A stretch of DNA of 37,311 nt from Thermoplasmatota archaeon. GTDB lineage: Archaea; Thermoplasmatota; Thermoplasmata; SG8-5; JACRNV01. Made by a program: the position numbers and the translations under genes. Positions 9,734-34,794 of this stretch are shown piece after piece. The stretch lies in contig JBFMEL010000002.1 in assembly GCA_040753455.1 (NCBI GenBank), positions 1-37,311 of the forward strand, in the 5' to 3' direction. The notes below the pieces were generated by a model. It was given only the letters and a program-made list of their open reading frames with translations, did no database searches and had not been told where the DNA came from. How positions within the stretch are numbered: position 1 is the first letter of the stretch; each line of letters opens with the position of its first letter.

Positions 9734-10100
9734 CGCCAGCCCCTATGGGGTTCAAGCATCTAAAGCCTTACTGCCGTGCGTGGAGGGTGGTGTATGCACC
9801 TTCCACGGTGTCTCACCACCCGCCCGAGCGAGCGGTCCAGAAGTGGTGGGGGGTGTGGTATAGCGAGCGAAAGGTTGCGACACCCACCAGCGATGTTGGC
9901 TTGACACATCCCGAGCTTTGCATCGTAGCGAATGCCCAGATATTGGGAACGGGACCACAGGAGCAGTCTGAGGTCCAACGCAAGGACGGGGTCTTAGATT
10001 TTATATAGGAGCAGCTCTATAGCGTAGCCTATGAAATGGGCGATTCGGAACAGTCACTTAGGGATGAGCGTTTGAAAGCAAAGGCTGGAGGCATGAATGT

Positions 10101-10667
10101 ATGCCAGTCGCTATAAACGAAATAAAAGCACAATTATCTAGATTAGGGGATTTGAGTTGGGAACAAAATAATTTTAAAAAAGAGTTCGCTTATTTACCTG
10201 AAGTTATACAACAAGGGGAAATAATCCAAGCCATTGCAAGCGGTGCCTGGAATGGCAAATTAAGTATTATTGTTGTCACTCAGAGACGGGTATTGTTCAT
10301 TTATAAAGGCATATTGTACGGATTAGAACAATCTGAATGCCCCATGCGAGAAATTAGTAAAATACATCATAAAATAGGTCTTATAGCTGGTGAGATTCAA
10401 ATATCTACATCTGGTGGAAATTTATTATTTACTAATATTCCTAAACATAAAGTACCTGGCTTAGTAAGGACCCTTGAGCAACTTATACATGATTCGGAGA
10501 AGACGAATATAGTGGCAACACCATCATTTCAATCCTCTACAGCCCCAACGACAGTTCGAGAAAAAGAAACGATAATTAAAGAAATAGTCTATATTAGGTG
10601 TAGCCACTGTGGAAGTTTATCTAATCAAACTGATAAGAAATGTTCTAATTGTGGTGCATCACTATAA
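10101..10667 (+). CDS. Bacterial-type PH (YokE-like) domain protein with C-terminal zinc ribbon
   Basis: The core GEIIQAIASGAWNGKLSIIVVTQRRVLFIYKG...EISKIHHKIGLIAGEIQIS resembles bPH/YokE-like PH domains. The C-terminus CSHCGS...CSNCG forms a Cx2C-x12-Cx2C ribbon. GGAGG lies 8 nt upstream of the ATG. The gene sits in an AT-rich island. Confidence 0.55.
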   Translation: MPVAINEIKAQLSRLGDLSWEQNNFKKEFAYLPEVIQQGEIIQAIASGAWNGKLSIIVVTQRRVLFIYKGILYGLEQSECPMREISKIHHKIGLIAGEIQISTSGGNLLFTNIPKHKVPGLVRTLEQLIHDSEKTNIVATPSFQSSTAPTTVREKETIIKEIVYIRCSHCGSLSNQTDKKCSNCGASL

Positions 10668-10797
10668 TCGCCAGGTTTGAATTACCCCTCTTTGTGATTG
10701 TTGCAAGGAATTCGAAAAATGACTGCCTATAGATCGCGCATGTCAAAAATCTTGATAGGAATGAGTTATTCAAAGTCCTCTTAACTGGAGAAAGGTT

Positions 10798-11319
10798 ATG
10801 GCTCATAAAATTACAGTGAAAAAAACTAACAAAGAGGAAACACTACCTGAAATCTCACTGGCTGAACTCAATAGGCACCTGGATGTGCCTGTTGCGCCTG
10901 AGAAACCAGATTCAAAAAAGGAGATTATTATTCTCTTCGTCTTAATACTGGTTATCGTCGGTTTGATTGCTATACCTTTATTGATTAACCTATCTGATAA
11001 CACTGATGGCGAGGGAGGAATCCAACAACCCCAACCTCAGCCGAGTAATGTCCGCTATATTGAAATTGAGGTAAATTACACTGGGCATTGGTCAGGTTCT
11101 ATTCTGGTGGGAACAGATTATTCAAGTTTTGATAGTTATGGATATCAACGAGCAGGATTAAATCTCACAAAAGGCACTGTTTGTTCTTTCTCAGCTCAAA
11201 AAATGGAGGGAGGATATGACAAATTAGAGTTACGAATTTACTCTGATGGTAAACAAATAAAATATGCTTTTACTAATTCAGAATATGGTATAGCAAGTGT
11301 TGCGTGGATAGTAGAATAA
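10798..11319 (+). CDS. Hypothetical single-pass membrane protein
   Basis: A 173-aa ORF with one TM helix (IIILFVLILVIVGLIAIPLLI) followed by a beta-rich ectodomain. I recognise no family. It lies in the AT-rich island. Confidence 0.5.
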   Translation: MAHKITVKKTNKEETLPEISLAELNRHLDVPVAPEKPDSKKEIIILFVLILVIVGLIAIPLLINLSDNTDGEGGIQQPQPQPSNVRYIEIEVNYTGHWSGSILVGTDYSSFDSYGYQRAGLNLTKGTVCSFSAQKMEGGYDKLELRIYSDGKQIKYAFTNSEYGIASVAWIVE

Positions 11320-12665: not shown

Positions 12666-13697
12666 ATGATAAGATACGGACCTGCTGGTATACCGCTCTC
12701 GTGCAAGGGAAGGACGCTCCGTGATGGCATCGAGGACGCCCACATCCTTGGACTGAACGCGCTGGAGGTTCAGTTAGTGAGGACGAATGTGATCGAGCGC
12801 GTGGCATCGGACGAGGAGGCGGGCTTGAGCCCCAGGGAGATACGCGATGAGCTGATCATAGAGTTTGTGAGGAAGCCCGGTACGAAGGGCGAGGAGCGTT
12901 TGTACACGGAGGACGAGATAAAAGGAGGGGACGTGCTGCGGGTCATGTCTCCAGGGATTGCCAAGGACTGGGAGCATCTGAAACAGTTGGGGGTACTGGC
13001 GAGGGACCTCGATGTGCAGGTATCGCTTCACTGCCCATACTACATCGATTTCACGAGCGAGGATGACATCACCCGCAGAAGCATCGAGAGCATCAAGTGG
13101 GGCGGGCTGTTGACCAAAGGGATGGGTGGTACGATCACCGTCACCCATCTTGGGCTTTATGGGGATCTGTCTAAGAGGTCTGCACTCAACAGGTGTGAGA
13201 AGCATCTCCGGGAGATTGCCGCGTGGTACAAGGAGCAGAATATCAGGACTCAGGTGGGGATAGAGACGAGCGGGCGTCAGGAGGTCGCAGGGAGCCCGGA
13301 GGAGATCATCAGCCTGGCGAGGAAAGTGCCTGGGTGCATCCCTGTGCTGAACTTTGCCCACATCCATTCAAGGGGGAACGGCTCGCTCAAGACAAAAGAA
13401 GACTTTCAGAAGGTCTTCGACGCGGTCGCTCCGCTGGTGAGAAGACATTACCACACTCATTTTTCAGGTGTGGAGCATGAGGGCGGGAACGAGATCCGCT
13501 ATACCCCCATAAAGAAGGGGGACCTGCGGTTCGAGCCGCTCTCGGAGTGCATCCTCGACAACGACTTCGAGATCACGATCATCTCCGATTCCCCGCTGTT
13601 AGAGCATGATGCCATGTACATGAAGGTGATACTGGAGCGCGTGCTGACGCGGCGCGAGGCGAAATACAGGCGCGAGATGGAGAGGAAGAAGAAATGA
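12666..13697 (+). CDS. Xylose-isomerase-like TIM-barrel protein (AP endonuclease 2/endonuclease IV-related fold)
   Basis: The N-terminus IRYGPAGIPLSCKG...GLNALEVQLVR and later motifs (SLHCPYYIDF, VTHLG, GIETSG, NFAHIHSRG) resemble the metal-binding strands of AP_endonuc_2 TIM barrels. It overlaps the next gene by ATGA. Confidence 0.55.
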   Translation: MIRYGPAGIPLSCKGRTLRDGIEDAHILGLNALEVQLVRTNVIERVASDEEAGLSPREIRDELIIEFVRKPGTKGEERLYTEDEIKGGDVLRVMSPGIAKDWEHLKQLGVLARDLDVQVSLHCPYYIDFTSEDDITRRSIESIKWGGLLTKGMGGTITVTHLGLYGDLSKRSALNRCEKHLREIAAWYKEQNIRTQVGIETSGRQEVAGSPEEIISLARKVPGCIPVLNFAHIHSRGNGSLKTKEDFQKVFDAVAPLVRRHYHTHFSGVEHEGGNEIRYTPIKKGDLRFEPLSECILDNDFEITIISDSPLLEHDAMYMKVILERVLTRREAKYRREMERKKK

Positions 13698-14233
13698 AAG
13701 AGACGCTGAGGTATCTCATAGACTCCCTGGGCAGTGCTGTGGACCAGGTGGATGTGGAGATGGCAGAAGCGCTCGTGAGCCGCCTGCTGGACGCGAAGCG
13801 CGTTTTCGTGTACGGTGTGGGGCGCTCGGGTTTGGTCGCCAAGATGCTCGCCGTGCGCCTGGTGCAGCTCGGGATGGACGTGCACTTCGTGGGGGATTCC
13901 ACGACCCCTATCGTCACTGCCGATGATCTGGTGCTCGTGGTCTCGAGTACGGGGGGCACGATGTCCGCCGTCCAGACCGCGAACATCGCCGGAAGGGTTG
14001 GTGCGTGCGTGGTCGGCATAACCTCGAACAGGAATTCCAAGCTGGCGCACGCAGCCGATCTTCTCATCACTATAAAGATCGAGGAGAGCGCAGAGAGACC
14101 GATCCATGCTCCGCTGGGCACCCTCTTTGAGATTGCGAGTTTGACATTCCTGGATTCACTCGTCCCCCTTTTAATGTCCCGCCTGGGGCAGGACGAGAGC
14201 GCTATGAAGTCAAGGCATGCGATCTGGGTCTGA
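13694..14233 (+). CDS. hxlB: 6-phospho-3-hexuloisomerase (SIS domain)
   Basis: SIS motifs are present: VFVYGVGRSGLVAKMLAVRLVQLGMDVHFVGDSTTP and DLVLVVSSTGGT. The size (179 aa) is typical of PHI. Confidence 0.75.
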   Translation: MKETLRYLIDSLGSAVDQVDVEMAEALVSRLLDAKRVFVYGVGRSGLVAKMLAVRLVQLGMDVHFVGDSTTPIVTADDLVLVVSSTGGTMSAVQTANIAGRVGACVVGITSNRNSKLAHAADLLITIKIEESAERPIHAPLGTLFEIASLTFLDSLVPLLMSRLGQDESAMKSRHAIWV

Positions 14234-14825
14234 GGTCCCGTATCTTCTCCATAGGGCCATAGGGGTCCTCGTACTCTTCCCAGAAGACCGCGAATTTCAC
14301 TGGGATGTAACCTTGCCCATCCAGCTTGAACGCTGCGATCTCCATGGCGATCGGGTCTATCACGATGGCTGAGTGATACGGTTCCGGGAAAAGGGTTCTC
14401 TGGGTCTGGATATCGGTAGGGGAGAGGAAGCAGCCGTGTCCGGGGTGCGAGTGGTACCAGCCCACGATCAGGTAGTCCCACCTCAGGTCGTCCAATCTAA
14501 CAGCCAGGTCATCCAAGCGCTTTCTATCGAACCTCACGCTGACGCTGCTCGCCTCCAATCCGGAGGAGACCACGTCGTTCACAATTGAATATAAATATCC
14601 ATCAGGAGCTTGGAATGCATCGCCCACCATCAGCCCCATCACTTCCAGCTGCTCATCCCTGTAGGCGATGGCATGGTTCCTGATCTTCTCCTCCGCGCGC
14701 TTGGACAGGAAGACCTCTGGTCCCTCGTTATGTGGATGGCGCTTCCGCCACATGTGCTCCGCGCAGAGCCTCGGGGGTTCAGCTTTGGCGATCCCCCTTT
14801 TGGACTCACCTATCACCTTAGGCAT
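14202..14825 (-). CDS. JAMM/MPN+ metalloisopeptidase (Rpn11/HvJAMM-like deubiquitinase/Ubl-processing protease)
   Basis: The JAMM motif is complete: the conserved Glu in QLEVMGLMVG, then GWYHSHPGHGCFLSPTD (HxH-x7-S-x2-D). The start overlaps the end of the E2 gene by 8 nt. Confidence 0.85.
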   Translation of the reverse strand: MPKVIGESKRGIAKAEPPRLCAEHMWRKRHPHNEGPEVFLSKRAEEKIRNHAIAYRDEQLEVMGLMVGDAFQAPDGYLYSIVNDVVSSGLEASSVSVRFDRKRLDDLAVRLDDLRWDYLIVGWYHSHPGHGCFLSPTDIQTQRTLFPEPYHSAIVIDPIAMEIAAFKLDGQGYIPVKFAVFWEEYEDPYGPMEKIRDLRPRSHALTS

Positions 14826-15348
14826 CCTGCCCCCCTTGCACGATTCTGGGCTTGGCAGCGCTCTCCACGATCACAGGTGGGGCATAGCTGTGCATCCTGA
14901 AGTACTCCGCAGCCAGCATACAGCTCTCGCTGCCGTACGGATTGCCGGGGTTCGGGTTCATCAGCAGGGTTTCGATCCCCTTTATAAAAGTGACGAGCGT
15001 GGAGTGGAACGCCCAGTCATCGAGCAGTTTGGTGCACACATATCCCCCATCCCTGGGGATCATGATGTTCGGATGAAAGATCGGGCTCTGCCAGCGCACG
15101 ATCGGTTTTTCATACGGGTAGTGCTCGGTCACGATGATCTTCAGTTTGTGGGTGTAGGCGTGCGTGACGCTCCCTGCCCGCAACACAGGTCCAGGGGACT
15201 TGAGGAGGGTCACATCGATCTCCACGGGGAATCTCGAGAAGCTGGAATCCGAGACAGAGATCTCATGGCGGAGTTGCGCCTTGCACATATTCACCTCGTT
15301 GCGCACGCGCGCGCTGAGGATGTCTCTGGGCAGTCCCAACCCGAGCAC
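14818..15348 (-). CDS. UBC-fold ubiquitin-conjugating enzyme (E2), eukaryote-like
   Basis: HYPYEKPIVRWQSPIFHPNIMIPRDGGYVCTKLLDDW parallels the canonical E2 signature YPFKPPKV.F.T.IYHPNI...G.ICLDIL...W, including the HPN triad and catalytic Cys. GAGGAGG lies just upstream. The start is GTG 15348 or possibly TTG 15339. Confidence 0.8.
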   Translation of the reverse strand: MLGLGLPRDILSARVRNEVNMCKAQLRHEISVSDSSFSRFPVEIDVTLLKSPGPVLRAGSVTHAYTHKLKIIVTEHYPYEKPIVRWQSPIFHPNIMIPRDGGYVCTKLLDDWAFHSTLVTFIKGIETLLMNPNPGNPYGSESCMLAAEYFRMHSYAPPVIVESAAKPRIVQGGQDA

Positions 15349-15371
15349 GCCTCCTCAAACTATGCGGGGGG

Positions 15372-15614
15372 CTATATCCCTCCCTCAGGGTCGGGGATGA
15401 GCTCGAGCACGTCTCCATCTCTCACGCCCGCCATCTCAGCCCCAGCCTGCCCGCGCAGTATCCCCTTTCCCCGCCTCAGCACGTATGCGCCAGCGCTCTT
15501 GTTCCAGTAAGTGGCTGCACTCTCTATGAGCTCGTCCACCATGTTCGTGGGCTCTATCTCCATGTCTATGGTGTCTCCGGTCTCCGCGTTTCTAATCTTG
15601 ACCCTCATTGGCAT
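15372..15614 (-). CDS. Ubiquitin-like beta-grasp modifier precursor (C-terminus ...PEGG-I)
   Basis: The 80-aa protein MRVKIRNAETGDTIDMEIEPTNMVDELIE...VRDGDVLELIPDPEGGI has ubiquitin-like length and pattern (compare ubiquitin ITLEVEPSDTIENVK...LRLRGG). A diglycine is followed by one extra residue. It is the first gene of the Ubl-E2-JAMM operon. Confidence 0.7.
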   Translation of the reverse strand: MPMRVKIRNAETGDTIDMEIEPTNMVDELIESAATYWNKSAGAYVLRRGKGILRGQAGAEMAGVRDGDVLELIPDPEGGI

Positions 15615-15640
15615 GTCATCGCCTCGATGGATGATGGCAC

Positions 15641-15653
15641 TATATCACATAAA
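15641..15653 (-). promoter_or_regulatory. TATA-like box for the Ubl-E2-JAMM operon
   Basis: The minus strand reads TTTATGTGATATA 27-39 nt upstream of ATG 15614. Confidence 0.4.
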
Positions 15654-15816
15654 CCTTGCGCGCCTCTGCTCCTGTTCACGAGGTAGGGTGATAGTACACT
15701 TCTAGCCAGCGTATCGCATTCTTTTTATAGTGCGAAACTTTGGATTAGTAAAGAAATTGCTGGCTCGGCAATTGGATTGATTTAGATTTTTCTTCGGGGT
15801 AATATGTGGGTTTGCC

Positions 15817-16557
15817 TCATTCGGGTTTCTGCCTTTCCTTCTTTCGTATCAGAGCATGGAGAGCATTCCGGCGCCTTCGGTTGTAGAATTCGATTTTGAT
15901 GTCGTATTCGTCGTGGCTGATGGTTTTTATCCTTTCACATGCATCGAGTACCTTTGACACGTTGTTATCCTTCAATGCGAAAATGGCTACCTCAGGCACG
16001 CGGCGTATGAAGCGCTCCCGAACATCAATAAGTATCTCTTCAATCGTGGTTTTATTAATCACCCAGATGGCGTATGGACAGAACCGCAGTATGCTGTTGA
16101 CGAACGCCTGGAATTGAACTCCCGCCTCTCGGGATTTGTCTTCCTTGATAATCTCCCTGAAATAGGCATAAAGGTAGTCGAAGCCATCGATGTTACCGGG
16201 CAAGCCGGCTGGAAGAGGGCTGCTAACGATGTTGTAGAGCTTCGTTAGTGGATATCCAAACCCTTCAATGAAATCTTCGTACATCTTTTGGGCTTTCTTT
16301 GGATTGGTCTGATCCAGGTACTTAATACAAAGCGCCACCCTAAGGGCGCCTAGCGTTTTAGAATCTAAGTATGGCTGCATCTCTTTGAGCTTCGCTTTTA
16401 TCTCCTTTGGCAACTTGGTGAGCTCTATTTCATTCTGGGTGATATCCGTCCGTGAGATGATGCCATTCCTGGCAATGAATGATGCAAGCCTCTCCTTGAA
16501 ACTCTTCTTGTAGGGCGTTATCTCGATGGGTTTTTTGTCAGATGGCATGACTGTCAA
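15817..16557 (-). CDS. Hypothetical protein (246 aa), no recognisable family
   Basis: A clean ORF that is visibly lower in GC than its surroundings. It overlaps the upstream 80-aa gene by 4 nt. I found no catalytic motif. Confidence 0.55.
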   Translation of the reverse strand: MTVMPSDKKPIEITPYKKSFKERLASFIARNGIISRTDITQNEIELTKLPKEIKAKLKEMQPYLDSKTLGALRVALCIKYLDQTNPKKAQKMYEDFIEGFGYPLTKLYNIVSSPLPAGLPGNIDGFDYLYAYFREIIKEDKSREAGVQFQAFVNSILRFCPYAIWVINKTTIEEILIDVRERFIRRVPEVAIFALKDNNVSKVLDACERIKTISHDEYDIKIEFYNRRRRNALHALIRKKERQKPE

Positions 16558-16796
16558 GCGTCGATTTTGTTAAGGTGTACGGCGAAGCAAGTTGGGTTGT
16601 CGCAGTAGAACTCCAGCGACCCCTTGACGACGTTGCCCAGGGTGTCCTTGGATACTATCTTGCCACAGCCGGGGCATACGGCGGGGCTCTTGTCAACGAG
16701 TATGGTGCCCTCTGCGTTGACCTCCGCTCCGACCCCCTCGATAATCTCTACCGCCTGGTCTTTCTTGAACGTTACGAACTTCAGCGCATCACCCAT
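16554..16796 (-). CDS. Small zinc-ribbon protein (80 aa), hypothetical
   Basis: CPGCGKIV-x-...-YCDNPTC forms a Cx2C...Cx4C pattern. It is translationally coupled (4-nt overlap) to the 246-aa ORF. Confidence 0.5.
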   Translation of the reverse strand: MGDALKFVTFKKDQAVEIIEGVGAEVNAEGTILVDKSPAVCPGCGKIVSKDTLGNVVKGSLEFYCDNPTCFAVHLNKIDA

Positions 16797-19218: not shown

Positions 19219-19929
19219 TCATCTCAGGAAGGACAGCGGGTTCGTGTCCAGCCTCACCACCGCCCTCTCTGCGCCCTGATCCACCTCCACGAAGAGCAGC
19301 CCTTTCTTTCTGCGTCTCATCACGGGCATCACGCCGTCCCTGCGCAGGAGTGACAGCATGCTCTGTTTAAACCCATCAGCCCTCTCTGCGTAGAAGCGGA
19401 TCATCGCCTCCAGTTCCATGGACTGGGTGTAATATGTTTCCCCGCGAGCTCGCTGTGCCTCCACGAATCCATGGGCTTCCAGGCGCCTCATCACGAGGGC
19501 TGCCGCCTGCTGTGATATTTTCATCTCTTGGATGGCTGCACTCTGCCTTACCTTGCCAACCCTCACCACCATGAGGAGCGCCTGTCTTGCCTTCTCCTCT
19601 GCTAACAGCGCGAACCGCTCGCGGTCCGATGGAGCGATCATCTCCAGCACGAAGTAGCGCTGCGAGCGCCCGTATGCGAAGCTGTTGAGATACTCCATCT
19701 CCCCAAGGAGGCGCAGGTGCCGTGCAGCAGACGGTGCGCTCAACCCCACTGCCCTGCCTGTCACGCGCTGGGAGCTGCAGGGGCGCATGGTGAGATGAGA
19801 AAATATCTCCATTCTATCTCTGGACATGAGCAGCGATCTTTTCCCCTCTCCCCTGGTCACAGCCCTCTTGAAGAGATGGTCATGTCCAAACGCTGTCCTG
19901 AGCGCAGTGCCGAGGGTTCTTTTCTTCAT
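19219..19929 (-). CDS. Double winged-helix (ArsR/MarR-like) DNA-binding protein
   Basis: There are two wHTH-like units: RMEIFSHLTMRPCSSQRVTGRAVGLSAPSAARHLRLLGEMEYL and RQSAAIQEMKISQQAAALVMRRLEAHGFV. Its ATG overlaps the GTPase stop (ATGA). Confidence 0.6.
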   Translation of the reverse strand: MKKRTLGTALRTAFGHDHLFKRAVTRGEGKRSLLMSRDRMEIFSHLTMRPCSSQRVTGRAVGLSAPSAARHLRLLGEMEYLNSFAYGRSQRYFVLEMIAPSDRERFALLAEEKARQALLMVVRVGKVRQSAAIQEMKISQQAAALVMRRLEAHGFVEAQRARGETYYTQSMELEAMIRFYAERADGFKQSMLSLLRRDGVMPVMRRRKKGLLFVEVDQGAERAVVRLDTNPLSFLR

Positions 19930-20510
19930 TCCACTACCCTTCGTCCGATCTCCTCGAAGGCTTGCTCGACATTCAGCCCTGTCTTGGCGCTGGTGAGGTA
20001 GTAGGGCATGCCGAGCCTGCGCGAGATCTTGTCTATGGCATCCTCCCCGAAATCGTACTGCTCCACGAGATCAGCCTTGTTCACCACCAGCACCATTGGA
20101 ATCTCCCCTGCCTCCTCCTTCATCGCCTCGACCCAGCTGCGCAGGCTCAGCATCGTGGATTCCCTCGTGAAGTCGCAGACCACCAGTGCCCCTGAGGCTC
20201 CTTGATAATACAATCTGTGAACGCTCTCGAACCTCACCTGTCCTGCGATATCATGGATCATCATCGTCAGGTGCACGGGCGTGCCCTCCCTCTTTCTGGT
20301 CTCGAGCACCTTCTTCGTCACCTTCGCGCCTATGGTCTCCAGGTACTTGTCCCGAAAATCATCGTACACGTACCTGCGGATGAGCGAGGTCTTGCCCACT
20401 GCTCCATCGCCCACCATACAGACCTTTTTGATGATGCCGCGCATGCGCCTCGATCGCCGATATGCGAGATCCATATATAAATTCCAGGGTTCACTGCGCC
20501 ATGAGGTCAC
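19926..20510 (-). CDS. Ras-superfamily small GTPase (Rab/Ras-like)
   Basis: All five G boxes are present: G1 GDGAVGKTS, switch I Thr in YLETIGAKV, G3 DIAGQ, G4 NKAD, G5 TSAK. It also has the Rab-like YYQGASGALVVCD. There is no C-terminal Cys for lipidation. The longest ORF starts at GTG 20510 (GTGA overlap with the upstream gene). ATG alternatives are at 20474 and 20444; the latter has GAGG upstream and gives MRGIIKKVCMVGDG. Confidence 0.85.
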   Translation of the reverse strand: MTSWRSEPWNLYMDLAYRRSRRMRGIIKKVCMVGDGAVGKTSLIRRYVYDDFRDKYLETIGAKVTKKVLETRKREGTPVHLTMMIHDIAGQVRFESVHRLYYQGASGALVVCDFTRESTMLSLRSWVEAMKEEAGEIPMVLVVNKADLVEQYDFGEDAIDKISRRLGMPYYLTSAKTGLNVEQAFEEIGRRVVE

Positions 20511-29999: not shown

Positions 30000-31913
30000 A
30001 TGGATTATCACGATGCCCTGCGGTACATCTACGGGCTTCAATATCTAGGGGTGAAGTTCGGGCTGGAGAACACGCTCGAGCTCCTGCGCCGTCTGGGCAA
30101 TCCCCACCAGAGGTACATGAGCGTGCATGTGGCAGGCACCAACGGCAAGGGCTCTGTGTGCGCCTTCATCGAACGTGTGTTGCGGGAGGCTGGGTTTCGC
30201 ACAGGGCTCTACACCTCTCCGCACCTCATCGATTACACGGAGCGCATGCAGGTCAACGGAGTACCAGCAGGAAGGGAGGAGATCGCCACGCTCTTCGAGG
30301 AGGTTAAAGGGCATATCGAGGAGATGCGCCCTGATATGCGATGCACCTTCTTCGAGACCACGACAGCCCTTGCGTTCAGGTATTTCGAGGAGAAGGGCGT
30401 GGAGATAGCGGTCGTCGAGACAGGGATGGGGGGGAGATTGGATTCCACGAACGTGATCATGCCTAAGGTGGCGGTGATTACTGATATAGGGATGGAGCAC
30501 ACCAAGCACCTGGGTTCCACGATATCGCAGATCGCGCGCGAGAAGGCGGGGATCATAAAACCAGGGGTGGATGCGGTCACCTCCGAGCAGGAGGAGGGTG
30601 CAATGACCGAGCTCTCCATGAGGGCGAGAGGTTGCGGCAGCACGCTGTACGCCCTCGGAAAGGAGTTCGATGCGGAGCGCATGTCTGTGAAGGACAGGGG
30701 GCAGCGATTATTATACAAAGGGCTATATGATAATATGACGATAGAGATCAGGCTTCTGGGAAAACATCAGGTAAGGAACGCTGCCGTTGCGCTCTGCGCG
30801 CTCGAACTTTTGAGAGAGGGTGGATTGAAGATATCGGGCCGGGCGATCAAGGGGGGGATGAAGATGGCGAAATGGCCTGCACGCCTTCAGATCATCAGGC
30901 GCAGTCCGGTGATCGTGATCGACGGGGCGCACAACCCTGCAGGTGCCGGGGCGCTCGCGGATAGCTGGGATGAGGTCTTCAGAGATCGAAGGGTCTTCGT
31001 TGTGATGGGTATCCTTGCAGACAAGGATTGCATGAGCACTGCCGCTCCACTGGTGGACAGGGCATGCGAGCTCATAGCCACCGCACCGAGGAATGAAAGG
31101 GCGCTGGCTGCATCTCGTTTTGCAGAGGTTGTGGGTGCAAGGGAATATCATGACTGCTCTGCGGATGCGATCATCGCTGCGCTGCGCAAAGCGAAAAATA
31201 GGGATGCGGTGTTAGTGGTCGGTTCGCTCTATCTTGCGGGGGAAGCCTTGTTCTTCTTCAGCGCGCTGCCCCCTGATCCGAGCGAGGTGTGCAGCAGGCT
31301 GAGAGCCGAGTACGATGTGGGAGGGGAGGAGAGGGGGGAGCGGGACCCGTTTCACGTGCTGGTCGCTACGATCCTCTCGCACCGGACGAAGGACGAGCAC
31401 ACCCATAGGGCGGCGGAGGCGCTGCTGGAGCGCTATCCCACGCCAGGGCAGCTCGCATCTGCACCCCATGAGGATATAGAGCATCTGATCCGTCCGGCAG
31501 GGTTCTACAGGGTAAAGGCGAGGTATCTCAAGGATGCGGCTAAGAAGATTGTGGAGGAGTTTGGAGGAGCCGTGCCTGGAGATATAAACAAACTGATGAG
31601 CATCCCCGCAGTCGGTCGAAAGACCGCAAACTGCGTGTTGGTCTATGGCTTTGGCATGCCTGCGATCCCTGTGGATGTGCACGTGCATCGCGTCTCGAAC
31701 AGGCTGGGGCTCGTGAGCACCACCCATCCCCATGACACAGAAGAAAGGCTCAGCGCCCTCGTGCCCAGGCAGTACTGGATCGAGATCAATCGCCTGATGG
31801 TGCGCCATGGTCAGGAGACGTGCCATCCTCTAAGGCCCAGATGCCCTGTCTGCGTGCTGCGCGATCTCTGCATGCACTGGCGTAGAACCTTTTCAGCCCC
31901 TACATCGTTGTGA
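30000..31913 (+). CDS. Fusion protein: folylpolyglutamate synthase/dihydrofolate synthase-like Mur ligase (N-terminal) + endonuclease III HhH-GPD DNA glycosylase (C-terminal)
   Basis: The N-terminal part has VAGTNGKGS (P-loop), the Mur-ligase middle domain and GSLYLAGEA at about 31221-31250. The C-terminal part starts at 31344 with DPFHVLVATILSHRTKD, the HhH motif IPAVGRKTANCVL (catalytic Lys), VDVHVHRVSNRLG (Asp) and the 4Fe-4S motif CHPLRPRCPVCVLRDLC (C-x6-C-x2-C-x5-C). A single uninterrupted frame of 637 codons covers both. Confidence 0.8.
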   Translation: MDYHDALRYIYGLQYLGVKFGLENTLELLRRLGNPHQRYMSVHVAGTNGKGSVCAFIERVLREAGFRTGLYTSPHLIDYTERMQVNGVPAGREEIATLFEEVKGHIEEMRPDMRCTFFETTTALAFRYFEEKGVEIAVVETGMGGRLDSTNVIMPKVAVITDIGMEHTKHLGSTISQIAREKAGIIKPGVDAVTSEQEEGAMTELSMRARGCGSTLYALGKEFDAERMSVKDRGQRLLYKGLYDNMTIEIRLLGKHQVRNAAVALCALELLREGGLKISGRAIKGGMKMAKWPARLQIIRRSPVIVIDGAHNPAGAGALADSWDEVFRDRRVFVVMGILADKDCMSTAAPLVDRACELIATAPRNERALAASRFAEVVGAREYHDCSADAIIAALRKAKNRDAVLVVGSLYLAGEALFFFSALPPDPSEVCSRLRAEYDVGGEERGERDPFHVLVATILSHRTKDEHTHRAAEALLERYPTPGQLASAPHEDIEHLIRPAGFYRVKARYLKDAAKKIVEEFGGAVPGDINKLMSIPAVGRKTANCVLVYGFGMPAIPVDVHVHRVSNRLGLVSTTHPHDTEERLSALVPRQYWIEINRLMVRHGQETCHPLRPRCPVCVLRDLCMHWRRTFSAPTSL

Positions 31914-31945: not shown

Positions 31946-32857
31946 CTACTCAAACTCGGCGCCGCATCTGGGGCAGAATGCATCGCTTTCGCTCACCATG
32001 GTGCCGCAGCTTGGGCACTCGAAGATCGTGCCCTCCTCCATCCTCCTGTCGAAGATCGCACCGCATGTGCACCGCTCCGCCCCCTCTGGGATCACCCTGT
32101 CGCATGCAGGGCAGCGGTACTCTATCTCCTCCAGATCCTCCGAGAACTCCGCGCCGCAGCCTGCGCAACGCCTCGCCTCCATGCTCTGGACCGCGCCGCA
32201 GAGCGGGCATGAGACCTCCTGCTCAGAGTCCACGAAGACCACACCGCAGCTGCACTTCCGTGCCGAGGATTCGAGGACTGCACCGCACTCTGGGCAGGTG
32301 AACCTCATCTCCTCTATAAATCTAACACCGCACCTGGAGCATGCGCTCGCATCGGCATCCAGGGCTGCGCCGCACTCCGGGCACTCGAACTCCAGAGCTG
32401 CATCCTTCTCTGGTGGGGGGGCTGTGCGCCTCAGCGCATCCTCGTACTTTGCCTTCAGCTCCAGGTATGTGGCCTCGGAGATGTGCCCTGTGAGCAGCCT
32501 TTCCTCCAGGAGCTCCAACTTATCCCTGGGCGTTAACCCATCCTTAGGCGGCAGTGGGGCGGGCGCCCGATCACCGTTCGGCACAGCAGGTGGCGCTCCA
32601 TCCCTGGGCATCCGTGGATGAGATGGTGCTGGCGCTGGAGGATCCACACGCATCCTATCCTCTATCTGGGCGCTGCAGGAGACGCATACTCCCACTCTGA
32701 AGCCGCAGGTGACATGGTAGAGCTTTCCGCAGTCGCAGAGTGCGAAGGGCAGCCCTTCCTTGATCTCGCCCAGACAGATCCCGCACAGGCGCACCACGTC
32801 CGCCCTGCGGCTCACCACGCTCGGCTTTTTGTAGGTGTGCGCCACAGGCCTATGCAT
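31946..32857 (-). CDS. Multi-zinc-finger protein: N-terminal C4HC3 RING/PHD-like finger, Pro-rich linker, SHOCT-like helix, five tandem zinc ribbons
   Basis: CGICLGEIKEGLPFALCDCGKLYHVTCGFRVGVCVSC gives C-x2-C-x12-C-x-C-x4-H-x2-C-x6-C-x2-C. KLELLEERLLTGHISEATYLELKAKYEDAL is SHOCT-like. Five CP.CG...C..CG ribbons follow. ATG 32857 is chosen as the start because the longer ORF (to 33169) overlaps the upstream gene. Confidence 0.65.
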   Translation of the reverse strand: MHRPVAHTYKKPSVVSRRADVVRLCGICLGEIKEGLPFALCDCGKLYHVTCGFRVGVCVSCSAQIEDRMRVDPPAPAPSHPRMPRDGAPPAVPNGDRAPAPLPPKDGLTPRDKLELLEERLLTGHISEATYLELKAKYEDALRRTAPPPEKDAALEFECPECGAALDADASACSRCGVRFIEEMRFTCPECGAVLESSARKCSCGVVFVDSEQEVSCPLCGAVQSMEARRCAGCGAEFSEDLEEIEYRCPACDRVIPEGAERCTCGAIFDRRMEEGTIFECPSCGTMVSESDAFCPRCGAEFE

Positions 32858-32952
32858 CACACGTGCATCGAAGGGAGGGAGAAAAAGGTTGCTCTGTGGA
32901 GGATGGAGTAGAGCGCTCGGACGACCTGTGGTTGAGATAGCAGATCCTGCGC

Positions 32953-34794
32953 TTATCCCGTCGGTGGGTATTGTGGGGGCTGCGGCGGTTGCCAGGGTTC
33001 CTGCGGTGGTGGGGGCTGTGGCTGCTGCGGTGGGTACTGGGGTGGTGGGGGAGGCATCTCGTACGGCTGCGGACCATGCGGGACAGCCTTCTTGCGCATC
33101 ATCACCATCCCTACGACGACGAGCACCACCACTATCACTACTACCACTGTGATCAGAATGTAGAGCCAAGTGCTGTCCTTTGGGGCTGCGCCAGGCATCA
33201 TCACCCCTTCAGAGGACAGGTATGCCTCTGGGTTCTCCTGGAAGGACTGAGCATCCTCCTCGGGCACCTTTCCCAGCTGGAAGTCCTCCGCCGCGCTGGT
33301 GGGATCGATCGGCACTGGCATGTAGCCCACATCCCCGAGCTCGCCGAGATAGGGTGAGTAGGATTCGTAGAAGCCTGTATCTGGATCGTAGACCGCCTGT
33401 GTTTCAAAGCCATAGGAGTATCTGGTTCCAGGCAGGCTTGGGAAATCCTCGATATTCATCAGGAGCCCATAGAATCCCGTGATAATGGGGGGTGCGGTGG
33501 CTGTGTTCGTACCCGCATCGTAGGAGAGAGAGAAAAAGTCGCTGAAGCTGCCGCTGATGTCTTGGTCGATGGACTCATGGATATCCTCCATAGGGGTGGG
33601 CATGCCGCTGAAGTTGCCTGTAGTGGTCACATCCATGTCTATATTCGCGGTCGCGTGACCTGAGTAAGCGCACGTCACCACCTGGTACACGTATATGTCC
33701 TCGTCCTCCGCGGGCAGGAACGGGATGCCTAGATCACAGTCCAGGGTGAGGTTCATGTCCGCGCTGCCGCTGCCTGCGATTTCCATTGAGTCGTGCCTCT
33801 CCTGCAGCCCGCCGCTCACATCCATGCTCATGTCCATATTCACATTCATCGTTCCATCTACTGTGACAGTCATCTTGCTGACTGCGTAGTATGCACTTCC
33901 TGCACCATCCTCATAGTATTCAAGCCAGATGCTTCCTGAGTACTGGAAGTCCAAGAAGAGGTCTAAGTTTGCGCTCATCGTGCCTGTGGTGCCCTGCGCC
34001 GTGCCTGACACATGCATGTTGCCCTCGACGCTCGCGTATATCCTGCCTGTGTAATCGAACTTGTACATTCCGCTGTCCTCGCCTTTGTACTCGATCGTGA
34101 CATACTGCCCGATCCCACCAACAGCGTTCACGCTCACGCTGATGCCGCTCGGCGCTGTCTGGGTGAGGTTCTGCTTCAAATCCTCTGCCAGGGCGCTCAC
34201 ATCGATGTAGCCGCCAGAAGACCATGTAGCGCCCACCGTCCACGGGACGCTCGCAGGGGTGCCTGGATGGAAATCGCCGCTATCTCCGCCGCCTCCACCA
34301 CCGCCGCTCGCCCACTTCTCTCCGCCCGCGGTATCGGTATCGTGTACCGCATCGGTGGAGTAAGCTGCTACTGCAGCGATATCGAATTCCGCCTCAGGTC
34401 CGGCATAAGTGGAAGGGAAGATTATTGACAATGTATCTCCGCTCACCGTGTACGTGCTGAATGATCCGGAAGTCGAGGGAGTGCTGTATGCGCCATAGAA
34501 GTAACCGCTGGTATACCCGGCAGTGACGGAATAGACGTCATTGTCTCCAGCGATTATCGAGTAAACGTAACCGCTCTCGCTCGATATCGTCCCATAGACC
34601 TCGAGCTCTATGATAATTTCGCTCCCGGATTGGTATGATCTTAACGATTTGATGTCAGCGTTCGGTCTTGCAGGATACTCCTGTGCATCGTTGTATGTCA
34701 GGACATACCCTGCTCCCAGCGCTGAAAGCGCTGTGCCGACGAGCAGCGCGATCCCAAGCATGGCTCCAATGGTGATTACCTTATGATTACTCAT
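32953..34794 (-). CDS. Hypothetical type-I membrane protein with large ectodomain and Pro/Gln-rich cytoplasmic tail
   Basis: The N-terminal signal/anchor is ITIGAMLGIALLVGTALSALGAG and the C-terminal TM is WLYILITVVVVIVVVLVVVGMVMM. The tail reads PPPPPQYPPQQPQPPPPQEPWQPPQPPQYPPTG. I recognise no family for the ectodomain. Confidence 0.65.
   Translation of the reverse strand: MSNHKVITIGAMLGIALLVGTALSALGAGYVLTYNDAQEYPARPNADIKSLRSYQSGSEIIIELEVYGTISSESGYVYSIIAGDNDVYSVTAGYTSGYFYGAYSTPSTSGSFSTYTVSGDTLSIIFPSTYAGPEAEFDIAAVAAYSTDAVHDTDTAGGEKWASGGGGGGGDSGDFHPGTPASVPWTVGATWSSGGYIDVSALAEDLKQNLTQTAPSGISVSVNAVGGIGQYVTIEYKGEDSGMYKFDYTGRIYASVEGNMHVSGTAQGTTGTMSANLDLFLDFQYSGSIWLEYYEDGAGSAYYAVSKMTVTVDGTMNVNMDMSMDVSGGLQERHDSMEIAGSGSADMNLTLDCDLGIPFLPAEDEDIYVYQVVTCAYSGHATANIDMDVTTTGNFSGMPTPMEDIHESIDQDISGSFSDFFSLSYDAGTNTATAPPIITGFYGLLMNIEDFPSLPGTRYSYGFETQAVYDPDTGFYESYSPYLGELGDVGYMPVPIDPTSAAEDFQLGKVPEEDAQSFQENPEAYLSSEGVMMPGAAPKDSTWLYILITVVVVIVVVLVVVGMVMMRKKAVPHGPQPYEMPPPPPQYPPQQPQPPPPQEPWQPPQPPQYPPTG

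Follow-up and report, generated by a model that had tools for sequence, protein, structure and literature searches.

An archaeal Ubl-E2-JAMM gene trio without a linked E1: part of a Thermoplasmatota ubiquitin-type cassette whose activating enzyme is probably encoded elsewhere

How does a ubiquitin-type conjugation locus work when no gene for an activating enzyme (E1) stands beside it? The question is raised by a minus-strand gene trio on contig JBFMEL010000002.1 of a Thermoplasmatota archaeon (assembly GCA_040753455.1), which encodes a ubiquitin-like modifier (Ubl), a conjugating enzyme (E2) of the UBC fold and a JAMM/MPN+ metalloprotease. The window, as we call the whole stretch of DNA that was analyzed, is one entire contig of 37,311 nucleotides (37 kb). 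A sequence-only reading of this DNA had taken the trio for a minimal E1-less module that would borrow an E1 from elsewhere or use a different chemistry. Our results show that the trio belongs to a widespread cassette whose first gene is normally that of an E1, and the missing E1 is therefore most likely explained by a break in gene order and not by new chemistry. We consider it likely that the trio serves a standard cascade from E1 to E2, in which the cognate E1 acts in trans from another place in the genome. The open reading frames (ORFs) of the trio and the spacer within it are as follows (lengths in nucleotides, nt, and amino acids, aa).

15372-15614, minus strand: Ubl, 80-aa ubiquitin-like modifier precursor with the C-terminus ...ELIPDPEGG-I
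15340-15371, minus strand: Ubl-E2 spacer if E2 starts at TTG 15339, with a Shine-Dalgarno-like GAGGAGG at 15356-15350, as read from the sequence
14818-15348, minus strand: E2, UBC-fold conjugating enzyme, ORF of 176 aa, with a probable start at TTG 15339 that would give 173 aa
14202-14825, minus strand: JAMM, Rpn11/CSN5-like JAMM/MPN+ metalloprotease, 207 aa

Over 328 protein clusters are homologous to the E2, almost all of them from Thermoplasmatota that have not been cultured, and a scan with one genome per species found relatives in at least 267 species-level genomes. All E2 loci listed come from Thermoplasmatota metagenome-assembled genomes (MAGs). The usual gene order in the relatives is ThiF(E1)-Ubl-E2-JAMM, with a ThiF of ~260 aa on the same strand and gaps of a few to ~60 nt; downstream follow a convergent SIS gene, a gene of the AP-endonuclease fold and, in many genomes, ribosomal-protein genes. 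The pair of SIS and AP_endonuc_2 genes downstream of JAMM is common to the window and most family loci. In an E2-side census of 74 informative loci, ThiF stood directly upstream of Ubl in 45 and 0.9-3.9 kb upstream in another 6. No ThiF was present in the fetched locus in the remaining 23, which include the clade of the window; in 16 of these, the window among them, the upstream sequence covers 5 kb or more, and 5 of the 23 are solo or Ubl-less E2 paralogues. When only loci with Ubl adjoining E2 are considered, ThiF is not nearby in about a quarter. An adjacent E1 is therefore typical of the family and not universal, and with 45 of the 74 loci carrying an adjacent ThiF and six more one within 4 kb, the trio cannot be regarded as a new minimal module; the general rule that known cassettes include an E1, from which the earlier reading had started, is one that the family of the window obeys. 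On the E2 tree the E1-less loci group in coherent clades, one of which contains the window together with L009, L003, L010 and L022 and has L068, L080 and L083 as neighbours, while a second is nested among ThiF-adjacent loci. Linkage to E1 has been lost in several clades, that of the window among them. The trio represents the Ubl, E2 and deconjugase genes of a Thermoplasmatota Ubl-conjugation system that is chromosomal and apparently vertically inherited.

The three ORFs are tightly packed, exactly where the sequence-only reading had placed them, and the predicted identity of each protein was confirmed. JAMM overlaps a neighbour at either end, its start sharing 8 nt with the end of E2 and its 3' end 32 nt with the convergent SIS gene. 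Two details of the layout had to be revised. An E2 of 176 aa behind a spacer of 23 nt follows from a start at GTG 15348, and the GAGGAGG reported for this spacer is present, but it ends only 1 nt from this GTG and 10 nt from TTG 15339. Because of this spacing, and because the homologues begin with MGLP or MPLP and the public gene call (P0001) is 173 aa long, TTG 15339 is the more probable start, which would give an E2 of 173 aa (14818-15339) and a spacer of 32 nt.

The E2 matches Pfam UQ_con at 1.7e-12 (47.5 bits, gathering cut-off 27) and its best sequence match in the PDB is UBE2A (2.9e-11), with the E2 cysteine aligned on the catalytic cysteine and the HPN motif intact. In an AlphaFold2 (AF2) model with pLDDT 88, the top 50 Foldseek neighbours were all canonical E2s, in agreement with the UBC-like, eukaryote-type active-site region seen earlier in the sequence. 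HPN (residues 92-94 of the 176-aa ORF) and the catalytic cysteine (residue 105 in the same numbering) are kept without exception in the 83 E2 family members, to which the window E2 is 51-77% identical, reaching 77% with L009. Some E2 paralogues (L058, L060, L062, L069, L082, L087 and L031) form a clade of their own and have no Ubl beside them. Two such paralogues stand in tandem in L062, those of L082 and L087 adjoin larger JAMM-like proteins, and those of L060 and L069 come from one MAG, so that some genomes have more than one such E2.

JAMM matches Pfam JAB at 1.8e-11, and its best PDB matches are Rpn11 (2.7e-14), CSN5 (1.7e-11) and CsRpn11 (7e-11), with PSMD14 among the closest solved relatives. 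Its catalytic residues E61, H125, H127, S135 and D138 are all in place, and the E...HxH-x7-S-x2-D motif is kept in 75 of the 76 JAMM orthologues, including that of the window. Against the haloarchaeal desampylase equivalog the protein scored 25.9 bits, below the cut-off of 130. JAMM also diverges much faster than its partners (46% identity to its counterpart in L009, compared with 77% for E2 and 82% for Ubl), with purifying selection persisting.

The Ubl has only a weak Pfam match (YukD, 2.4e-4), and its assignment as a ubiquitin-like beta-grasp protein ending in PEGG-I was borne out by structure and profile comparisons. The AF2 model from a single sequence (pLDDT 86, pTM 0.75) has the order beta-beta-alpha-beta-beta-beta and superimposes on SUMO, ubiquitin, NEDD8, ISG15 and Caldiarchaeum Ub with a TM of ~0.8 in Foldseek. 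The best PDB matches of a profile built from 18 orthologues are ubiquitin and NEDD8 in end-to-end alignment, at single-domain E-values of ~0.01-0.1; the far lower values obtained for polyubiquitin are inflated by the repeats. The Ubl ends exactly at Gly-Gly in 55 of 76 orthologues and has one additional isoleucine in the window, where one residue must therefore be removed before Gly-Gly is exposed. The remaining loci carry 1-10 residues past Gly-Gly (I, Q, H, RR, QAA, FAW and others), varying by clade. Judging from these tails, the need for JAMM-mediated maturation of Ubl is lineage-specific and the general role of JAMM is probably deconjugation, since 55 of the 76 Ubls already end at Gly-Gly.

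The absence of E1 from the window, as claimed earlier for ThiF-like ORFs, was verified in two ways. There was no ThiF Pfam match among the ~30 long ORFs, and searching the 985 six-frame segments of at least 20 aa with a ThiF profile, all filters disabled, gave no E-value better than 5, and thus the window contains no remnant of an E1 pseudogene. The place upstream of Ubl where relatives carry ThiF, and the other features to which we refer below, are listed here.

15615-15816, minus strand: intergenic region upstream of Ubl, presumed promoter of the trio
15817-16557, minus strand: near-orphan gene of 246 aa, a boundary feature outside the system
13694-14233, convergent to the trio: SIS gene, downstream of JAMM
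12666-13697: AP_endonuc_2 gene, downstream of JAMM and beyond SIS
31946-32857, minus strand: tentative candidate E3 of 303 aa, with a RING-like finger and zinc ribbons

In the intergenic region TATA-like sequences are present 5' of Ubl, CTATAAAAAG at 15730-15721 and TTTATGTGATATA at 15653-15641, and a GAGG stands 8-11 nt ahead of the Ubl ATG. The earlier assertion that the trio has its own TATA-like box is thus correct as to the motif, with the promoter role putative and taken from the sequence alone. The lower-GC cassette said to border the trio is likewise real but small, a patch of ~1 kb (~15600-16650) with a GC content of ~0.46 compared with ~0.57 on its flanks. The 246-aa gene in this patch has no match in Pfam, PADLOC or PHROG; a search of 5.8 billion proteins returned only the protein itself, and an exhaustive search gave one homologue of 48% identity and about 20 weak ones. 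We considered this gene as a hidden activating enzyme and rejected it, as it matches no family, has essentially no homologues and is absent from all other E1-less loci. Nor do the E1-less loci share any conserved gene in the place of ThiF upstream of Ubl. The low-GC patch with its near-orphan gene has the appearance of an insertion between ThiF and Ubl.

A separation of E1 from the trio is also visible from the side of ThiF. A search from the cassette ThiF recovered 762 proteins at E <= 1e-20, and the three closest ones outside the clade of the query (P0133, P0134 and P0136; 64-66% identity, ~262 aa) are encoded on contigs that show no trio in their vicinity. These unlinked E1 orthologues keep all invariant motifs, namely GxGxxGNE of the nucleotide loop, SNLNRC, GCLDN, the zinc-binding CxxC, SCTG and CPHH. 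In a metagenome census of close ThiF orthologues ~47 adjoined the trio, 2 were rearranged yet linked, 8 were left uncalled and 9 had no E2 or JAMM in the available 1.5-10 kb of downstream sequence. One of these nine, L094, gives direct evidence on one contig, as it carries ThiF, then an ORF of 3,198 aa and then Ubl, 9.6 kb downstream, and other unlinked ThiFs (L089, L091 and L111) likewise precede very large genes on the same strand. Because of L094 and these giant genes, we regard the ThiF-Ubl junction as a recurrent insertion point, at which separations from 0.9 to ~10 kb were seen. The cassette E1 itself did not reach the curated cut-off of any ThiF, MoeB or UbaA equivalog (for UbaA 89.8 bits, compared with 450), which suggests that the E1 is specific. 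Its profile matched the adenylation domains of eukaryotic UBA2/UBA3 (~121 bits) better than those of MoeB (101) and ThiF (84), and its ~260 aa leave no room for an inserted cysteine domain or a ubiquitin-fold domain. By these comparisons it is a distinct subfamily.

Taken together, the usual linkage of the cassette to E1, the existence of unlinked E1 orthologues, the separation seen in L094, the selection acting on the unlinked trios and the invariant Ubl tail (both described below) and the patch at the junction argue for a standard cascade with E1 at another locus, and we infer that the genome of the window encodes such an enzyme. In this cascade the Rpn11-like JAMM would trim the C-terminal isoleucine and expose Gly-Gly, by analogy with the action of CsRpn11 on CsUb (PMC6043591). 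A dedicated ThiF-type E1 of ~260 aa would then adenylate the Gly-Gly end, with the cysteine of SCTG as the probable thioester site, and Ubl would be handed to Cys105 of E2 as a thioester. E2 would modify lysines of target proteins, alone or, more speculatively, together with a RING-like E3, for which the protein at 31946-32857 would be a candidate, and JAMM would reverse the conjugation. At some point the ThiF-Ubl junction would have been broken in the genome of the window, leaving the low-GC near-orphan gene in the slot of E1.

Several observations weigh against an E1 in trans. ThiF is missing within 21.7 kb upstream and 14.2 kb downstream of the trio, and also in the available sequence of the six other members of the window clade, which extends 2-10 kb upstream of Ubl in L003, L009, L010, L172 and L174 and offers no upstream coverage in L022. 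None of the NCBI accessions of the ThiF matches is a neighbour of that of the closest E2 relative (P0002, MBI5001108.1). The midpoint-rooted E2 tree places the E1-less clades deep, so that the unlinked state of E1 may be ancestral. Finally, we found in the literature no experimental work on any biochemical step of the Thermoplasmatota cassette. It should be kept in mind that absence of E1 from a 37-kb contig is not the same as absence from the genome.

In the L003 subclade, which is the nearest to the window, we observed a divergent gene set ahead of the trio (L003:4397-9449, minus strand, and also L172:18-2443). It has two unannotated proteins of ~440 and ~365 aa, after which come, in L003, a Cdc48-like ATPase of 878 aa with a double AAA module and a small membrane protein. 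There was nothing E1-like in the 441-aa and 365-aa upstream proteins. A Cdc48-like unfoldase beside a ubiquitin-like system could be functionally meaningful.

The alternative that survives best is that the lineage of the window truly lost its dedicated E1 and that a housekeeping E1 of the MoeB/UbaA type, which serves SAMP and sulfur-carrier activation, charges Ubl in trans. Archaeal UbaA serves several Ubls, none of the seven window-clade loci shows ThiF in the sequence available, and the E1-less clades are old and coherent. The UbaA family has been described in this context (PMC2948915). A change of E1 would, however, be expected to relax or shift the Ubl tail, which an E1 has to recognize, and the other conserved positions, and this is not what we see, as the ELIPDPEGG tail is invariant among the orthologues and the same in E1-linked and E1-unlinked clades, and 17 invariant Ubl positions are likewise unaltered between them (window and L009 Ubl are 82% identical). 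Unlinked close orthologues of the cassette E1 with all motifs do exist, and the position of the cassette E1 as a distinct subfamily below the MoeB, ThiF and UbaA cut-offs suggests specificity. We therefore regard this loss as unlikely. The broader version, in which the lineage of the window and about a quarter of the trio-bearing lineages have lost the dedicated E1 and the trio is charged by a non-cognate E1 of the UbaA/MoeB type or by ThiF-free activation, seems to us quite improbable; if true, nature would here provide a UBC-type E2 that operates without an E1 of its own.

Far less probable still is that the trio is a decaying or non-functional remnant left after loss of E1, or that it works free of E1 by a different chemistry. 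The window indeed has no E1, and JAMM is far more diverged than its partners (46% identity to L009, as against 77-82%), but all catalytic residues are intact and the ratios of nonsynonymous to synonymous substitution (dN/dS) speak against decay. Within E1-less clades dN/dS was 0.00-0.15 for Ubl, 0.02-0.14 for E2 and 0.03-0.19 for JAMM, in pairs limited to those with unsaturated dS. Every E1-less pair tested gave values well under 1 for Ubl, E2 and JAMM alike, comparable to those of ThiF-adjacent pairs. Trios without a linked E1 are thus under strong purifying selection and not decaying, and the unlinked layout persists across many species-level genomes. In all known UBC systems, moreover, a Gly-Gly carboxylate reaches the E2 cysteine only after ATP-dependent activation.

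A role in antiviral defence of the kind known from Bil, Bub and CBASS Cap2/Cap3, which had been left open and for which a similar parts list (Ubl, E2 and JAB protease) and the low-GC patch adjoining the trio could speak, can be dismissed as highly improbable, because PADLOC has no match for Ubl or E2 and only a weak generic JAB match for JAMM, the E2 is a canonical HPN-type UBC and not of the Bil CEHH type (PMC11354881), E2 relatives are absent from viral contigs, the family occurs almost throughout a large clade of archaea, and the stable chromosomal position beside the SIS and AP-endonuclease-fold genes, with ribosomal-protein genes next in the relatives read, is unlike that of unstable defence islands.

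Compared with the Thermoplasmatota cassette as a whole, the window has orthologous Ubl (up to 82%), E2 (51-77%) and JAMM, with the same order, packing and SIS/AP-endonuclease-fold neighbours, and differs in having E1 neither adjacent nor within 37 kb and a Ubl that runs one residue past Gly-Gly. Operons in Caldiarchaeum and Asgard archaea consist of Ub, E1, E2, a small RING E3 and Rpn11 (PMC3082918, PMC5654768, PMC6043591). The window shares with them a ubiquitin-fold modifier with a processed Gly-Gly, a UBC-fold E2 and an Rpn11-like JAMM, and CsUb and CsRpn11 are among the best structural or sequence matches of its proteins. The mechanism, with precursor processing, transfer from E1 to E2 and deconjugation, is probably the same. 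The window differs from them in phylum and in having no RING gene in the operon, with the only candidate 16.3 kb away; an 80-aa protein adjoining the trio has only a C4 zinc ribbon, and no RING was found beside the trio. Also, the Caldiarchaeum E1 has an inserted catalytic-cysteine domain (PMC11354881) that the ~260-aa E1 of the window family lacks. Sampylation (SAMP, UbaA and JAMM1) likewise has a beta-grasp modifier ending in Gly-Gly, a ThiF/MoeB-fold E1 and a JAMM enzyme for deconjugation, but it uses no E2, whereas the window family has a canonical UBC E2, a JAMM nearer to Rpn11/CSN5 than to the desampylase and an E1 that is no UbaA equivalog, and for these reasons we do not count the family as sampylation. 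With Bil (BilABCD), Bub and CBASS Cap2/Cap3 it shares the list of E1, E2, Ubl and JAB parts, and in Bil the deubiquitinase pre-processes its Ubl (PMC10557695). It departs from Bil and CBASS in having no PADLOC match for Ubl or E2, an E2 with HPN in place of CEHH, no fusion of E1 with E2 and a syntenic chromosomal setting.

The architecture is also not uncatalogued. Several public homologues of the E2 are annotated 'ubiquitin-conjugating enzyme E2', a 'JAMM-3' cluster near Rpn11/CSN5, found in operons together with homologues of Ub, E1 and E2, was described by Fuchs et al. 2018 (PMC6043591), and a 'Ca. Thermoplasmatota E2' clade lies deep in a tree of archaeal E2s and UEVs (bioRxiv 10.1101/2023.07.25.550441). 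The Thermoplasmatota cassette is probably the 'JAMM-3' group, an assignment of our own, as PMC6043591 names no taxon. These passing mentions in the two reports are all that we found in the literature, and a dedicated description of the cassette was not among it. The locus in the window thus belongs to a known, experimentally uncharacterized kind, and the sequence-only reading is supported in part.

A possible ligase for the system is encoded on the same strand, 16.3 kb upstream of Ubl. The ORF spans 31946-33169, with a likely start at ATG 32857 that would give 303 aa, and has near its N-terminus a C4HC3 RING-like finger (nt 32675-32785, CGICLGEIKEGLPFALCDCGKLYHVTCGFRVGVCVSC), with several zinc ribbons behind it. 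The finger matched the C-terminal RING of the giant L094 protein (3,198 aa) with a domain E-value of 1.2e-9. A strict RING cross-brace pattern, with 16 loci, and a hidden Markov model of the domain detect the finger in only 16-17 of 172 loci; every case but that of the window adjoins ThiF, Ubl, E2 or JAMM genes, as in L150 (RING-ThiF-Ubl-E2) and L111 (ThiF, then a RING protein of 3,025 aa), and the window gave the sole match among the E2-side loci (1.2 Mb). The best PDB matches of the RING profile are RING-H2 domains of E3 enzymes (EL5 at 0.0011, then RNF24, Pirh2, AMFR and HRD1) at marginal E-values, and the Pfam matches to zf-RING_2 (0.0017) and Prok-RING_1 (0.011) are both under the cut-off. 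We therefore propose the protein tentatively as a candidate E3, a lead that consists of one short domain 16 kb from the trio.

RING-like fingers were also observed in the giant ORFs that come right after a cassette-type ThiF, L094:10678-20271 (plus strand, 3,198 aa) and L111:7327-16401 (plus strand, 3,025 aa). Each has a C4HC3 RING-like finger at its end, and that of L094 gives weak matches to Prok-RING_1 and zf-RING_2. The L094 protein showed no transmembrane-like segment. The two could be very large E3-like proteins. A 613-aa membrane protein of the window (32953-34794) was considered as a relative of these giants and discarded, its only similarity being weak and to the C-termini of unrelated ORFs of ~300 aa, with none to the giants themselves. 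Finally, metagenome contigs L155-L164 (for example L157:11-3246), a more distant group, combine a ThiF of ~40% identity with a RING-like protein of ~250-360 aa, JAMM, Ubl and E2. This five-part cassette resembles the Caldiarchaeum operon, with some genes on opposite strands.

Some features of the window stand apart from the trio. At 10001-11000 the GC content falls to 0.37, compared with ~0.57 elsewhere; the region holds an unannotated ORF of 173 aa and, at 10101-10667, a bacterial-PH and zinc-ribbon protein that matches phage family phrog_2700 (2.6e-26), and it may be a mobile or viral remnant. A eukaryote-like small GTPase of the Ras/Roc family (19926-20510, minus strand; Ras 9e-38) adjoins a helix-turn-helix protein and a hemerythrin-PAS sensor. 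A link of this GTPase to the trio was rejected, as one is near the trio in only 3 of 83 loci (a few kb away in L001 and L023). An ORF of 637 aa at 30000-31913 (plus strand) fuses the middle and C-terminal Mur-ligase domains to an HhH-GPD base-excision glycosylase, an unusual combination.

The interest of the locus lies mainly in the family as a whole and in the RING lead, and less in the missing E1. The family is a large ubiquitin-type cascade of Thermoplasmatota, outside the Asgard and TACK archaea, and it looks like an intermediate grade between sampylation, with E1 only, and the E1-E2-E3 operons of Caldiarchaeum and Asgard archaea. The recurrent split into a locus for E1, with or without RING, and a locus for Ubl, E2 and JAMM provides natural test cases for asking which components of such a system have to co-evolve.

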